A stretch of DNA of 24,109 nucleotides, from IMG/VR virus record IMGVR_UViG_3300044448_003297, positions 1 to 24,109 of that record; one strand, written 5' to 3'. The translations under genes were made by a program, and so were the position numbers. Under the pieces are notes generated by a model. That model was not told the origin of the DNA. It searched no databases and was given only the letters and a program-made list of their open reading frames with translations. This DNA comes from a virus. Its lineage: Duplodnaviria > Caudoviricetes. Below, piece by piece: positions 17,320 through 23,767 of this stretch (positions are counted from its first letter, which is position 1; the number at the start of each line of letters is the position of its first letter).

Positions 17320-17612
17320 TGGAGTTTAACTGTAGTCAATGTGGGGCGTGCTGTAAGCAAGCAGGTCTGATAGGATTACCCACTAAGGAAGATGGAAGTT
17401 GCAAGTTTTTATCTGAGGATAACAAATGTAGTATATACGACACGAGACCAGACATATGCAATATTAAAAAAATGTACGAAAAAAGAAAGAAAAAGGGTAT
17501 GGATATAAACTATAAAGAATATTGTAAAATTTCCAGTGAGGTTTGTAACGACCTGATGGAGAAGAGTGGGGTAGATAAAAAGTACAGATTAAACCCAGAT
17601 GAGTATAAATAG
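17319..17612 (+). CDS. YkgJ-family (CxxCxxCC) cysteine-cluster protein
   Basis: 'FNCSQCGACC...DGSCKFL...NKCSIYDTRPDIC'. The start is likely ATG 17319 overlapping the previous stop (track starts at GTG 17316). Confidence 0.85.
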   Translation: MEFNCSQCGACCKQAGLIGLPTKEDGSCKFLSEDNKCSIYDTRPDICNIKKMYEKRKKKGMDINYKEYCKISSEVCNDLMEKSGVDKKYRLNPDEYK

Positions 17613-17896
17613 TGGACTTTGTAAATTTAATTGAAACCTTTGGCTTGCCAGTGGCAGGGGTAATAGCACTGGGTTTTTATGTATCTAGACAAAATAAATG
17701 GATACAGGAGACGCTTATGCAGGAGCTAGAAGAGAGTCAAAATCGTACCGAGGGGATTCTTATCAAGCTTATAGACCAACAGAAGCGTCTTCAAACAGAC
17801 GAGTTTCCAGATTTACATAAGGAGCTTGCACGACTTGAGGGTAGCTACCATTCAATCGTTAGAATAATAAGCAGTTTAAATAAAAAAAATTCATAA
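17612..17896 (+). CDS. N-terminal TM plus coiled-coil protein, holin-like
   Basis: GTG start. 'LIETFGLPVAGVIALGFYV' TM segment followed by a helical, charged C-terminus, within the lysis region. Confidence 0.6.
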   Translation: MDFVNLIETFGLPVAGVIALGFYVSRQNKWIQETLMQELEESQNRTEGILIKLIDQQKRLQTDEFPDLHKELARLEGSYHSIVRIISSLNKKNS

Positions 17897-17906
17897 AGGA
17901 GAATAG

Positions 17907-18080
17907 ATGAAAGATACACTTTTAACAGTAGTAGAAAAACCACTTGTAGGAATGATGGGTTCATTCGGTGGGGCATTTATAAATCATATGGAGATGTTAA
18001 GTCCATATCTAAACTTCGCATCGGTTTGCGTTGGTTTGGTTGTGGGTCTACTGACACTCAAGAAACTCTGGAAAGGATAA
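17907..18080 (+). CDS. Small membrane protein, 57 aa (not in ORF track), holin candidate
   Basis: SD AAGGAG. MKDTLLTVVEKPLVGMMGSFGGAFINHMEMLSPYLNFASVCVGLVVGLLTLKKLWKG*, hydrophobic with a basic C-terminal tail. Confidence 0.7.
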   Translation: MKDTLLTVVEKPLVGMMGSFGGAFINHMEMLSPYLNFASVCVGLVVGLLTLKKLWKG

Positions 18081-18086
18081 AACAAA

Positions 18087-18263
18087 ATGATAGCTGGACT
18101 AATAGTAAACTACCTTAAAGAAAACAAAGAAGAGATTGTTGATGAAATTAATAAGAAAATTAACATCCCTCTAATTTCAGAAGCCAAAGAAGAGGATATT
18201 CTAAATTCACTCTTTGACGGTCTAATGGAAATACTTGAAGGTATTTTAGCTAAAAAGAAATAG
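18087..18263 (+). CDS. Hypothetical amphipathic helical protein, 58 aa (not in ORF track)
   Basis: SD AAGGA. MIAGLIVNYLKENKEEIVDEINKKINIPLISEAKEEDILNSLFDGLMEILEGILAKKK*. Confidence 0.7.
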   Translation: MIAGLIVNYLKENKEEIVDEINKKINIPLISEAKEEDILNSLFDGLMEILEGILAKKK

Positions 18264-18264
18264 T

Positions 18265-18293
18265 TTGGAATAAATATCTGCTCATAGTAAATT
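18265..18293 (+). promoter_or_regulatory. Sigma70-like promoter for the recombination/replication operon
   Basis: TTGGAA(18265-70), 17-nt spacer, TAAATT(18288-93) in the intergenic gap before the Rad52-like gene. Confidence 0.55.
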
Positions 18294-18306
18294 CTTTGTA
18301 ACTAAA

Positions 18307-18316
18307 AGGAGTAGCG
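18307..18316 (+). repeat. Extended RBS motif AGGAGTAGCG, copy 1
   Basis: Identical 10-mer also at 19642-19651 and 20717-20726, each just before an ATG. Reverse complement at 18676-18685. Confidence 0.85.
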
Positions 18317-18319
18317 ACT

Positions 18320-18916
18320 ATGAGTAAGATTGATTTATCTAAACTAGCACAACCAACACCAGAAGACAGGATTAAACACAGAACCCAAGCAGGGGTTAAA
18401 CTGTCCTATGTAGATGCGAGATACTGCATGGATGTTTTAGATGCTGTAGTAGGTCCTGAAAACTGGAGTGATGATTATAAAGAAGTAAAGGGTTTGTTGA
18501 TGTGTGGTGTTTCTATTAATGTTAATGGAACCAAAGTAACTAAATGGGACACTGGAACTGAAGCAAACTTTGAAGGAGAAAAGTCTATAGTTAGCGACTC
18601 ATTTAAACGTGCTTGCGTTAAATGGGGTATAGCAAGGGATTTATACGACATTAAAAAGGCTGGGGTCAAAAGGGACGCTACTCCTATATTACCTTCCGAA
18701 CCTTCCGTGGGTTCCCCTGGTAAGCCTCAGCCAAATTCCCCTACAAATAAACAATCTGGATATGTTCTTAATTTTGGTAAACATAGTGGAAAATTTATTA
18801 CAGATGTTCCCTTAGATTATCTTAAATGGTTTTTAAATCAAAAAGATAATAAGAAGGATATGAAGACTTACAATGAGTTTCTAAGTGAATATCAAAAGAG
18901 AATGACGAATGATTAA
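18320..18916 (+). CDS. Rad52/Rad22-family (Sak-like) ssDNA annealing protein with C-terminal 'FGKH' domain
   Basis: 'LSYVDAR..MDVLDAVVGPENWS', 'EKSIVSDSFKRACVKWGIARDLY'. C-terminal 'LNFGKHSGKFITDVPLDYLKW' resembles DUF3820 / ExoX C-terminal domains. Confidence 0.9.
   Translation: MSKIDLSKLAQPTPEDRIKHRTQAGVKLSYVDARYCMDVLDAVVGPENWSDDYKEVKGLLMCGVSINVNGTKVTKWDTGTEANFEGEKSIVSDSFKRACVKWGIARDLYDIKKAGVKRDATPILPSEPSVGSPGKPQPNSPTNKQSGYVLNFGKHSGKFITDVPLDYLKWFLNQKDNKKDMKTYNEFLSEYQKRMTND
18658..18732 (+). other. CDS-embedded stem-loop carrying the anti-RBS sequence CGCTACTCCT
   Basis: GGCTGGGGT(18658-66) pairs with GCCTCAGCC(18724-32), 9 bp with 2 G-U. The pyrimidine-rich interior includes CGCTACTCCTATA. 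Confidence 0.55.
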
Positions 18917-19643
18917 GCTTGTAGAGGGCACTAGATATGGTAGATTCTATGATATTGGGGATGGTATATACGTCCCCAGTGTCACCACAGTCACTAGATA
19001 TGGATGCCCTACACCTAATTACCTTCTAAAATACATTGTGAACAACTCAAAGGGTGACTATGATAAGTACCTAGAGACTTCATCAGAAGCACTTAGAGTG
19101 GGAACTGCTGTACACGATAGCTGTGAGAAGCTATTACTAGGTGAGGACTTAACTATAGAGAACGACCAAGAGGTGCAGAAGGGTGTAATAAGTTTTTGTA
19201 AGTGGTACAAGGACTATATGCCTAAAGTAATTTCAGTAGAAGAGGTGCTATACGCAAAGACTCACAAGCACGGTAAGTTGGTGTGTCCCTTTGCTGGTAG
19301 GTGTGACCTTGTGGTAGAGATGAACGATGAGATATGGATGATTGACCTAAAGACATCTAAGAGTCTAGAGGATTATACATATGTGATTCAGCTAAGTATG
19401 TATAAGATGTTGTGGGATATTCTACATCCAGACCAGACTATAGATAGGCTTGCTCTTGTTCATTGCAAAAAGAACTTTATGGGTGCACAGCCCACAGCAC
19501 GAACAAAGCTTTTTAAAGAGGTGGAGTTTGATGAGAAGTCTGTGTATGCAGCAGTGAGATTCTTTTACAGATACCAGGAAGCATTTGATAATAGTGGCAA
19601 CCTAAAAACAAAAGCTAAATTACAGACTGAATTTAAATTATAG
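18909..19643 (+). CDS. PD-(D/E)XK exonuclease (Cas4-like/phage recombination exonuclease)
   Basis: 'PSVTTV','GTAVH','EEVLY','AGRCDL','IDLKTS','QLSMY'; adjacent to the annealase. Confidence 0.88.
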   Translation: MIKLVEGTRYGRFYDIGDGIYVPSVTTVTRYGCPTPNYLLKYIVNNSKGDYDKYLETSSEALRVGTAVHDSCEKLLLGEDLTIENDQEVQKGVISFCKWYKDYMPKVISVEEVLYAKTHKHGKLVCPFAGRCDLVVEMNDEIWMIDLKTSKSLEDYTYVIQLSMYKMLWDILHPDQTIDRLALVHCKKNFMGAQPTARTKLFKEVEFDEKSVYAAVRFFYRYQEAFDNSGNLKTKAKLQTEFKL

Positions 19644-19651
19644 GAGTAGCG
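19642..19651 (+). repeat. Extended RBS motif AGGAGTAGCG, copy 2
   Basis: Overlaps the exonuclease stop codon and is immediately followed by the ATG of the initiator gene. Confidence 0.85.
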
Positions 19652-20335
19652 ATGAACGATTATATAGTAATACCAGGCAGTGTCTTGAGAAATCCAGACC
19701 TGACCTACCTACAGAAGTTAATCTTAGCTAAAATCACTAATTTAGATAACGACAAGGGGTGTTTTGCAACGAATAAATACTTTGCAAGATTATTATCCAC
19801 ATCTATAAATAGTGTATCAAAGACAATAAACCAGTTAAAAAGTATAGGATTGATTGAAGTAGAAATAAAAAACAATACAGATAGAAGTATAACCCTAGCT
19901 AAAAAGTGTAGGGGGGATGTCGTAAAAGTTGAGGGGGGGTCGCCTAAAAGTGTAGGGTCTTCCGTTACTATTAATATAGATAGTAATATAGATAATAATA
20001 AAATATATAAAAGTTTTATTGATTGGTGGAAATTATATGACAAAAAAGTTGGCAAGGATAAGGCTCTTAAGTTTTGGACTAAGAAACTTGACCAGTCTCT
20101 AGTTGATGATATAATGAACCACACCAAGCGTTATGTAAAAGCCACTGATAAGCAGTTTAGAAAGAACCCATACACTTACCTGTTTAATAGCTCTTGGGAA
20201 GATGAGATAATGAACGAAGAAGAAGAGATGAAATCTAATCCATTTGAAGACCAGAAAAGATTAAAGCTTTATAATCAGATGCACAATACAGATTTTCAAA
20301 CAATAGAAGAGGCTAGAGCTCATGCCAATGGTTAA
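19652..20335 (+). CDS. Replication initiator protein (N-terminal winged HTH, lambda O-like organisation)
   Basis: 'YIVIP..VL.NPDL...QKLILA.I...GCFATNKYFA..L...SVSKTINQL..IGLI'. C-terminal 'FIDWWKLYDKKVGK...KNPYTYL...WEDE'. Contains internal iterons. Confidence 0.85.
   Translation: MNDYIVIPGSVLRNPDLTYLQKLILAKITNLDNDKGCFATNKYFARLLSTSINSVSKTINQLKSIGLIEVEIKNNTDRSITLAKKCRGDVVKVEGGSPKSVGSSVTINIDSNIDNNKIYKSFIDWWKLYDKKVGKDKALKFWTKKLDQSLVDDIMNHTKRYVKATDKQFRKNPYTYLFNSSWEDEIMNEEEEMKSNPFEDQKRLKLYNQMHNTDFQTIEEARAHANG
19900..20020. other. Putative replication origin: three 22-bp-period iterons plus AT-rich unwinding element
   Basis: AAAAGTGTAGGG (19902), AAAAGTTGAGGG (19924), AAAAGTGTAGGG (19946), followed by an AT-rich tract containing TAATATAGATA twice. 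Confidence 0.75.
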
Positions 20336-20729
20336 ACTAGGTGATGCAATGAGACCACTTACAAGTAAGTTTGATATTGATTTAAGCTTAGGCGAGAAGT
20401 ATGAAGACTCTCTTGCTCAGATATTAACCATAGCAAAGATAGAAGTTAAAGCAGAAATAGATAAGTGGAGAGAAACAGGTAATATAGCTATAGAGATTAG
20501 GTGCAATGGAAAGCTATCAGGACTATCTGTAACCAAAGCAGACCACTGGTGCCACGTTCTATCTTACAAGAATGAAATTAAAATGATATTAATGTTCCCT
20601 ATTAAAGAACTAAAAAGAATAGTTAGGGAGCTAGTAGATAAAAAAGAAGCTAAGGTGATTATGGGTGGTGATAATAATAAGTCACAGATTGTGCTCATAC
20701 CCTTAGATAAAATAAAAGGAGTAGCGTAA
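20322..20729 (+). CDS. Restriction-endonuclease-like (PD-(D/E)XK) phage protein
   Basis: 'DLSLGEKYE','IEVKAE','TGNIAIEI..NGKLSGLSVTKADHW'. Confidence 0.65.
   Translation: MPMVKLGDAMRPLTSKFDIDLSLGEKYEDSLAQILTIAKIEVKAEIDKWRETGNIAIEIRCNGKLSGLSVTKADHWCHVLSYKNEIKMILMFPIKELKRIVRELVDKKEAKVIMGGDNNKSQIVLIPLDKIKGVA
20717..20726 (+). repeat. Extended RBS motif AGGAGTAGCG, copy 3
   Basis: Shares 14 nt (TAAAAGGAGTAGCG) with copy 1 and precedes ATG 20729. Confidence 0.85.
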
Positions 20730-21076
20730 TGGAAGTAATGAAAAAAATAGAAGAGATGTATCCTGAGTGTACAGATGCACTAATGAATAACTTTGACAGA
20801 GCGTATGACCTCTGGACCAGGAAACAAGCAGACTATGGAGACAGCAATATCCGACTGGGTTTAGACCTCTCCTCCTCATCCGAGCGTTCGCAAAATAGTA
20901 GGCTAGCTCAGTTGGGTGTTGTTATAAGAATGAATGATAAAATTAGTAGGTTAATTAATTTATATAAAAAGGACTTAGAGTCAGCAGTAGATGAATCTAT
21001 TGAGGACACAGCTCTTGATATTATGAATTATGCTAATATGTTAATGGTATTAAAATCAAACAAGTGGGGTAAATAA
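20729..21076 (+). CDS. Nucleotide-modification-associated domain protein (DUF1599-like, MazG-like helical fold)
   Basis: 'RKQADYG.S','IRMNDKISRL','DESIEDTALDIMNYA'. Confidence 0.8.
   Translation: MEVMKKIEEMYPECTDALMNNFDRAYDLWTRKQADYGDSNIRLGLDLSSSSERSQNSRLAQLGVVIRMNDKISRLINLYKKDLESAVDESIEDTALDIMNYANMLMVLKSNKWGK
20843..20923 (+). other. CDS-embedded long RNA stem-loop with anti-SD loop (CTCCTCCTC)
   Basis: 20843-20861 pairs continuously with 20905-20923: 19 bp, 13 Watson-Crick and 6 G-U. Confidence 0.6.
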
Positions 21077-21077
21077 A

Positions 21078-21356
21078 ATGACAATAAAGGACTTCAGAAA
21101 ACTAGATAATGGTGGCAAGGTAAAAGGTTTCATGACTATCGTAACAAACGAAGGTTTTGAAATGAAAAACTTTAAGCTTATTGAAGGTGCTAATGGGCTA
21201 TTCGTAGGTGCACCAAGCCAAAAGGGAACCGACAAAGAAGGCAACGAGAAGTGGTATGATATGGTGTGGATTCCAAAAGAGCTTAATGAACAGCTTGTAG
21301 ACCTTGTGGCTAATGAGGTAGATTTAACTCAAGACTCAAACCCTGTTCCATTTTAA
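21078..21356 (+). CDS. spoVG: SpoVG-family nucleic-acid-binding protein, probable phage SSB
   Basis: 'KVKGFMTI...GFEMKNFKLIEGANGLFVGAPSQK...WYD'. Acidic C-terminal tail ending in 'PVPF'. Confidence 0.8.
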   Translation: MTIKDFRKLDNGGKVKGFMTIVTNEGFEMKNFKLIEGANGLFVGAPSQKGTDKEGNEKWYDMVWIPKELNEQLVDLVANEVDLTQDSNPVPF

Positions 21357-21616
21357 TGTGGACAGGGAATACAACAGGGGGTAAGGTTTTGTATGTACAA
21401 AGGGAAGAGCTAGAGAAAGCACACTCTGAATTAGTGCAACACAATAAACAGCTCTTGAAAAAAATAGATGCAATCGTTAAATTAGTGGAGCAAACACTAA
21501 ACATACTTCTGTCATATAATCCGAAACTAGCAGAACAAACTAAAGAAGAGTTGGAGAAGATTAATGAACAGACAGACGATAAAAGCGATAAATCCCAGAG
21601 CGATACTTCTGGATGA
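21356..21616 (+). CDS. Hypothetical coiled-coil protein
   Basis: 86 aa, TAATG coupling to the spoVG-like gene. Confidence 0.55.
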   Translation: MWTGNTTGGKVLYVQREELEKAHSELVQHNKQLLKKIDAIVKLVEQTLNILLSYNPKLAEQTKEELEKINEQTDDKSDKSQSDTSG

Positions 21617-23717: not shown

Positions 23718-23743
23718 AAAAAAAGGGAGCCGAAGCCCCCTTT
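23718..23743 (-). terminator. Intrinsic terminator (strong on the minus strand, possibly bidirectional)
   Basis: Minus strand reads GGGGGC-TTCG-GCTCCC-TTTTTTT, between convergent gene blocks. Confidence 0.85.
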
Positions 23744-23767
23744 AATTGCATTTATCACATTAGAGGT

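Follow-up and report, generated by a model that had tools for sequence, protein, structure and literature searches.

The window analyzed here, 24,109 nt in length, is a 24.1-kb contig of a marine phage (complete record, IMG/VR accession IMGVR_UViG_3300044448_003297), and our subject is a predicted RNA element within its annealase gene that carries a segment complementary to the ribosome-binding sites (RBSs) of several early genes. The host gene of the element (18320..18916; all features are on the plus strand unless noted otherwise) opens the rightward early operon and encodes a Rad52/Erf-like single-strand annealing protein of 198 amino acids, which matched PF04098 (Rad52_Rad22) with 40.6 bits, above the cut-off of 20.3. 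The gene for a PD-(D/E)XK exonuclease (18909..19643) has a start that overlaps the annealase stop and no Shine-Dalgarno (SD) sequence, and therefore is likely to be translationally coupled to the annealase. Farther downstream lie genes for a replication initiator (19652..20335) and a DUF1599 protein (20729..21076). The gene labels of an initial annotation made from the sequence alone (Rad52_Rad22/Erf-like, HTH_36/replication initiation protein, DUF1599, and SpoVG) were upheld. A candidate early promoter, TTGGAA-N17-TAAATT (18265..18293), has 8 of 12 consensus bases, scored below the sites listed by a promoter scan, and was recognized from a similar pattern in relatives; it would begin a transcript ~9 nt ahead of the RBS motif of the annealase gene.

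That motif, AGGAGTAGCG, occurs in four exact copies in the window. Three precede start codons: at 18307..18316 before the annealase gene (target 1), at 19642..19651 before the initiator gene, where it overlaps the exonuclease stop codon (target 2), and at 20717..20726 before the DUF1599 gene (target 3), with gaps of 3, 0, and 2 nt to the ATGs at 18320, 19652, and 20729, respectively. The fourth copy lies on the minus strand, at 18676-18685, inside the annealase coding sequence (CDS). The initial annotation had described this arrangement of three RBS copies 0-3 nt before ATGs and one internal antisense copy, and it was confirmed; no exact match was present in any of 100 dinucleotide shuffles of the window. 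When one mismatch was allowed, there were five sites in the window relative to a shuffle mean of 0.68, and five were reached in 1 of 100 shuffles. Unbroken complementarity to the internal copy extends for 13 nt at the initiator RBS, 11 nt at the DUF1599 RBS, and 10 nt at the annealase gene's own RBS, and the corresponding duplexes were computed at −22.3, −20.5, and −18.8 kcal/mol, relative to about −8 kcal/mol for a generic anti-SD motif. The extensions to 13 and 11 nt noted earlier therefore hold within the window, but the 13-nt extension is not conserved; in relatives the bases after the core are TAC, TTT, TTC, AAC, or GAA, so that this extension belongs to the present genome only. A 10-nt complement of the given annealase RBS arose within the CDS in 0.26% of 5000 codon-order shuffles and in 1.2% of 5000 synonymous recodings. 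Three of the 20 start-linked GGAG sites in the window, which lacks most of the leftward operon, match the element over at least 8 nt. Pairing of the anti-RBS segment with the exonuclease start gave a duplex of only −2.5 kcal/mol, and late-gene starts gave −4 to −13 kcal/mol. The motif often joins a gene end, its stop codon, and the next start (window 20717-20731; L438:13749-14260), and because it spans these three parts several unrelated proteins end in KGVA; such places are possible cassette-exchange junctions.

The internal copy might be thought to arise by chance, to reflect an unusual 16S rRNA tail in the host, or to serve as the RBS of a minus-strand open reading frame of 64 amino acids, whose TTG start at 18669 follows the motif at a distance of 6 nt in the window. 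However, the start codon of that reading frame is missing at the same place in L002-L008, the structural genes use AGGAG without the extension, and exact matches were absent from all 100 shuffles. We consider these readings extremely improbable, and the covariation described below largely refutes them.

The internal copy is located in a Pro/Ser/Gly-rich variable linker directly after the annealing domain. A 75-nt three-way-junction RNA, in frame within this linker (18658..18732), was predicted with a minimum free energy (MFE) of −30.9 kcal/mol and z-scores of −2.55 and −3.1; its start falls ~11 nt past the codons of the conserved WGIARDLY block of the annealase. The predicted fold comprises stem P1 (18658-18666/18724-18732), a weak 4-bp stem P2 (18672-18675/18682-18685), and stems P3a (18689-18693/18719-18723) and P3b (18698-18703/18709-18714). 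The anti-RBS segment CGCTACTCCT (18676..18685), which is the exact complement of the RBS motif, consists of the loop CGCUAC and the 3′ arm of P2. Opening of this segment was computed to cost 3.5 kcal/mol in the window and 0.4-4.5 kcal/mol across elements (8.0 in L167), with the outer stem remaining closed. At the junction, one loop is conserved and complementary to the RBS, and the second loop is variable. A unit of about the 75 nt proposed initially does exist as a predicted fold, and compensatory changes are consistent with it. In 10 sequences of this short type, 95% of the alignment cells are paired, even though four of the 10 have a shifted P3b register and were scored as broken there; three pairs changed on both sides, and the score was reached by none of 500 shuffles. 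In four sequences of a long type, 99% are paired and three pairs differ on both sides; of the four changes confined to one side, every one involves a G-U pair in the sense-strand RNA. The controls for these pair changes leave the relatedness of the sequences in place. When 30 sources were searched with a model built from the short type (model R1), one sense-strand match was obtained in each of 10 that belong to the close clade.

No Rfam family matched over the element, and neither the covariance model of the c4 antisense RNA considered below nor any other Rfam model did so; the search of window 17600-21400 gave four weak matches elsewhere (E ≤ 5). A scan for an internal promoter or terminator that could delimit a separate small RNA found none. 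A tRNA-like NCCA end of the element was considered and rejected, as it is not conserved, and so was a −1 frameshift at AAAAAG, a run that L033 and homologous proteins do not preserve intact. Outside its paired stretches, P3 (window 18689-18723) is also pyrimidine-rich (UUCC, UCCGU, CCCU), and these bases could act as additional anti-SD seeds. Variant linkers reading KATP, NAPP, and IATP are present among homologous annealase proteins. In addition, sense-strand linker hairpins without a clear anti-RBS segment were seen in L166, L168-L171, L173, L175, and L176 (best-of-six-window z of −2.6 to −6.2).

The proposal that the internal copy and the RBSs base-pair as RNA predicts that they change together in relatives. 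Within the close clade, which includes many near-identical phages, GGAGTAGC at the RBS and the 8-nt core GCTACTCC in the element were both kept in 19 of 19 loci, and 17 of these also have a complementary ninth base, including one compensatory change in L043 with respect to its own RBS. In the distant syntenic locus L167, whose Rad52 protein has 46% amino acid identity, the RBS is GGAGATGT and the linker contains ACATCTCC, and the predicted pairing extends over the start codon with −23.5 kcal/mol. Another 10-nt stretch of the L167 annealase CDS, ~35 nt before the linker, is complementary to the 5′ leader immediately ahead of the SD and could extend a fold-back helix. An exonuclease-based search yielded 16 loci, of which nine were known, four were new and syntenic, and three were unrelated; two of the four new syntenic loci (L336 and L338) have an annealase of another Pfam family, Sak (PF06378). 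In these and in L343, also of the Sak type, the RBS is GGAGATTCGTT and an in-frame AACGAATCTCC is found at the apex of a long hairpin; in the syntenic Sak phages the RBS and internal copy had changed jointly to GGAGATTC/GAATCTCC. Across these three sequences 7 of 23 hairpin pairs have two-sided changes, and the apex is invariant. The identical 17 nt are translated as NESPIP in L336, L338, and L343 and, in a second frame, as KRISNS in L354; because two reading frames are used, the nucleotides rather than the protein are conserved. A matrix of computed duplexes between elements and RBSs across clades was mostly block-diagonal. The base-pairing proposal was therefore sustained in so far as internal copy and RBS covary in three lineages and two annealase families, even though some syntenic relatives have no element. 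We conclude from these sequence comparisons that the feature is genuine and that selection acts on its nucleotides.

A DNA-pattern scan of viral contigs returned 84 stretches, nine of which belong to this clade; as the others appeared unrelated, no copy was found outside annealase genes. Two unrelated Rad52-family genes have a 9-nt match (−13 kcal/mol), within the end of the conserved domain. Among cultured phages there were only distant annealases and no close annealase relatives, and scans of genome contigs gave no Rad52 relative and a single Sak gene, which is distant and has no element. In G011, a complete syntenic genome, the sole reverse match to the motif lies inside a methyltransferase-like gene and has no comparable fold. 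At the annealase position of the syntenic loci L335 (7274-7960) and L337 (3048-3794) there is a third, Pfam-negative protein family, which also is without the element.

The covariation bears on the possibility that cassette exchange driven by the annealase has spread the shared RBS as a junction sequence and that the internal copy is a captured repeat, the linker structure serving in mRNA processing, stability, or ribosome pausing. Inserted genes do bring the motif with them, the motif is found at gene junctions, the internal copy, read as DNA, repeats the leftward RBSs in direct orientation, and the L166-L176 linkers form hairpins (z −2.6 to −6.2) without an anti-RBS. On the other hand, the 17-nt segment has stayed constant, in contrast to its own stems and reading frame, the match recurs with three different motifs, and 17 nt combining flanks from three sites that lie in two orientations cannot come from a single copying event. 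We therefore regard an origin as a recombination by-product as quite unlikely.

Related genomes have a rightward early operon beginning with the annealase gene and a convergent leftward operon preceded by a conserved promoter-like sequence, TTGCAT-N17-TAACTT, in which the promoter was recognized from its pattern. When the motif was counted on both strands of five near-complete close-clade genomes, sites matching the element over at least 8 nt were linked to starts (8/33, 6/34, 6/40, 8/36, and 7/30 of the start-linked GGAG sites) and, except for one of the eight sites in G009, were located in the early region, on both strands. Each genome had one reverse copy, in the element, and zero to two further 8-mer matches, in structural genes. 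Start-linked variants with one changed base were compatible with G-U pairing in seven of nine cases, the other two being one non-early gene. The RBS of the first leftward gene matches the element over 13 nt in G006, over 12 nt in three others (G009, L338, and L354), and over 11 nt in G007, and the match uses a TTGGAG flank that is missing from the annealase gene's own RBS. In G007, G009, and L338 a divergent third gene, which has a promoter-like sequence of its own, matches over 11 nt by way of the remaining flank. In these three phages, the three best sites thus belong to three transcripts, are matched in three registers (in G007, with 0+7, 6+1, and 4+3 flank bases), and jointly span the invariant 17 nt; the matches of the top three sites had P ≤ 0.001 in 2000 flank shuffles. 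From these matches, two or three early transcripts would usually supply the best targets in their first genes, each matched in a different register and some lying on the opposite strand. A second motif, GGAGAAnAAGTA, is common to six early genes of the G006 leftward operon (L446:11157-13233). Upstream of the Sak gene in L354 (L354:6264-6518), the 12-nt target RBS belongs to a gene of 43 codons, and the Sak gene itself has an 8-nt version.

The same distribution was considered in terms of a DNA operator array, in which the motif would be a protein-binding site near early promoters and starts and the internal reverse copy would be an auxiliary operator ~370-480 bp downstream or a stoperator-like site. 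The lacO2 site in lacZ, an auxiliary operator inside a coding gene, offers a parallel; the leftward operon encodes small DNA-binding proteins, each early promoter is followed closely by copies of the motif, and sequence matching alone cannot distinguish complementarity from a common DNA consensus. The sites, however, are non-palindromic and SD-centered, they have only the core in common and differ in which flank of the internal copy they match, and that copy is within compensated stems that contain G-U pairs. Moreover, regulators belong to different families in different clades; the DNA-binding proteins range from weak RHH/Arc-like matches to XRE-HTH while the element persists. An operator array is, in our view, very unlikely.

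The initial annotation had placed the initiator at the center of a circuit acting in cis, coupling its translation to ribosome traffic on the annealase gene. In this form the proposal found no support. The motif is present at the initiator RBS in 14 of the 16 close-clade loci with an initiator, the L167 initiator has no SD, and in the Sak clade the match is 4-9 nt; the annealase operon and the early operon on the opposite strand each have a steadier target in their first RBS, and that of the opposite-strand operon can be reached only in trans. A more general fold-back model holds that the element finds its partners solely among the RBSs of the transcript carrying it (annealase ~370 nt upstream and initiator ~960 nt downstream), that ribosome passage frees them as in the Min Jou interaction of MS2, and that the other matches are by-products of RBS copying. 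For the 5′ ~490-600 nt of annealase mRNA, two alternative folds were predicted, the local element and a long-range RBS helix. The helix is the minimum-energy state in four of 11 genes (L043, L044, L167, and L343), lies within 1-4 kcal/mol of the minimum in four more, including the window (4 kcal/mol), and is 9-13 kcal/mol higher in the remaining three. These energies favor pairing in cis, as do the own-gene pairing predicted past the start codon in L167, L336, L338, and L343 and the compensatory ninth base of L043 with its own RBS. In contrast, the opposite-strand first genes match equally long or longer, via flanks missing from the own RBS; in L354 the own RBS matches 8 nt only and two other first genes match 12 nt; and the initiator is not a constant target. 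Action exclusively in cis therefore appears unlikely. Because the opposite-strand targets are unreachable in cis, the element would act in trans as well, which argues for a multi-target antisense domain.

We propose, with a probability of about 0.63, that the annealase mRNA carries a folded domain that acts as a multi-target antisense RNA and blocks early-gene RBSs on its own message and on transcripts from the other strand. The domain would function either as part of untranslated mRNA or as an excised RNA of 60-80 nt, perhaps helped by a protein such as the annealase or SpoVG. The exposed loop would begin pairing just 3′ of the SD and then zip over GGAG, and the resulting RBS duplex would keep the 30S subunit out; blocking of the annealase start would, by polarity, reduce translation of the coupled exonuclease. 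As early RNA accumulates, translation of the annealase, exonuclease, initiator, and leftward early genes would be lowered, providing a protein-free negative feedback that could time the end of the early phase. In a bolder version, the annealase gene would be an RNA-protein feedback device whose in-frame antisense domain opposes all early-transcript RBSs, the annealase would catalyze strand exchange from fold to duplex so that annealing activity is read to end the early program, and the same would be the general function of start-associated motifs in phages; this version is conceivable but doubtful.

Several observations weigh against a multi-target antisense domain. Covariation is not strict throughout, as the ninth base is mismatched in L034 and L035 and probably also, among contigs of four DNA runs examined, in one contig of run X14, an ambiguous case read from a two-record consensus. 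The per-gene probabilities from synonymous recoding were modest (0.006-0.19 in 12 positive genes). The element is restricted in distribution: among 135 Rad52-family genes it was found only in 18 close-clade genes and L167, it was absent from 35 of 39 Sak genes and present in four, and it is missing from L335 (genome G011) and L337, making two of the four new syntenic loci negative. On the target side, the wobble-compatible variants represent only ~3-4 independent events, and the rightward RBS variants TTGC (L043) and AAGC (L003) are not wobble-compatible. The leftward genes of short-type genomes match only 8 nt, and the six G006 leftward genes with the other motif match the element over only 5 nt. 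As for structure, the three element types have no common fold and model R1 misses both L167 and the Sak type; fold energy alone fails to choose the strand, being slightly lower for the minus strand in seven of 13 elements and clearly lower in L338. Finally, because the Rad52 linkers of L166-L176 form hairpins without an anti-RBS, linker structure can serve another purpose.

Three further features of the window were seen in and beyond these genes. Three 12-nt repeats with 22-nt spacing inside the initiator gene (19902-19957) are likely to be origin iterons. A weak match to the SAM-II riboswitch at 19569-19628, within the exonuclease CDS before the initiator RBS, had 25.5 bits relative to a gathering threshold of 44 (E 0.085) and is probably due to chance. 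A hairpin with A and T runs at 23718-23745, between the convergent early operons, is by eye a likely terminator.

If the proposal is correct, an overlapping regulatory RNA with several targets has molded the linker of a recombination protein, and such a layer of control would escape both gene annotation and intergenic RNA screens. Searches of an open-access library found no description of this arrangement. The closest parallels differ from it in defined ways. In the fold-back inhibition of IS10 transposase, the mRNA pairs its own RBS with a segment a few hundred nucleotides downstream in the same CDS; IS10, unlike the element, has a single cis target and no regulon-wide motif. The Min Jou interaction of MS2 comprises 7 nt with about −8 kcal/mol and one downstream target, is strictly cis, and has no dedicated fold (PMC11339067). 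As there, a segment of a coding region would pair with a distant initiation region that translation across the segment could free, but the likeness is confined to the initiator target; the present match covers the SD itself over 8-13 nt, includes the upstream own RBS and opposite-strand RBSs among its targets, and has a conserved local fold.

The start-associated sequences (SAS) of cluster K mycobacteriophages, a shared extended RBS motif of unknown function described in 2011, resemble our motif in being asymmetric, in containing AGGAG a few nucleotides before the starts of non-structural genes, and in having some conserved bases unpaired with 16S rRNA (PMC3203893). The 13-bp SAS consensus given there differs from our motif except for the AGGAG core. 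The initial annotation knew of no antisense copy in cluster K; the same source had already reported one opposite-orientation site in four of these phages (PMC3203893), a single reverse copy away from a start, as in the window. In Anaya this reverse SAS is intergenic and forms a 10-nt hairpin loop, with matches in 154 records. Among 10 cluster K loci the loop was exact in four, altered in two with the SAS unchanged, and absent in four; covariation of loop and SAS, tested in Amohnition and Syra333, failed. The cluster K parallel is therefore a lead rather than support. The strongly folded intergenic region there (L344:34680-35070, that is Anaya JF704106, ~59680-60070, and L345-L353; z −7.3 in Anaya including a terminator hairpin) follows a terminator and a promoter-like sequence, had no Rfam match in nine cluster K loci, and is a candidate undescribed non-coding RNA. 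Relative to cluster K, what is added here is a complementary partner of an SAS-like motif that changes with the motif across lineages, two annealase families, and reading frames.

Phage antisense RNAs provide the nearest comparison, among them the CI RNA of P4 and the c4 RNA of P1/P7. The role of c4 RNA is in immunity and lysogeny; a tyrosine integrase (PF00589) was found in none of the five near-complete genomes. The c4 RNA, which RNase P cuts from a precursor to ~77 nt, has three stems and a loop that occludes an RBS (PMC5320573). The element likewise is predicted to be a three-stem RNA of ~75 nt on the same strand as one of its targets, with a loop that overlaps the target RBS, as judged from sequence and computed pairing, and that would occlude RBSs. 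It differs in lying in frame inside a protein-coding gene, in having one conserved target loop rather than the two target loops a′ and b′ of c4 RNA (PMC5320573), and in being directed at the first genes of several early transcripts rather than at an antirepressor operon. By this comparison, the element is most likely a variant of phage antisense control, in which a multi-target antisense RNA embedded in a coding sequence would act on an early regulon.

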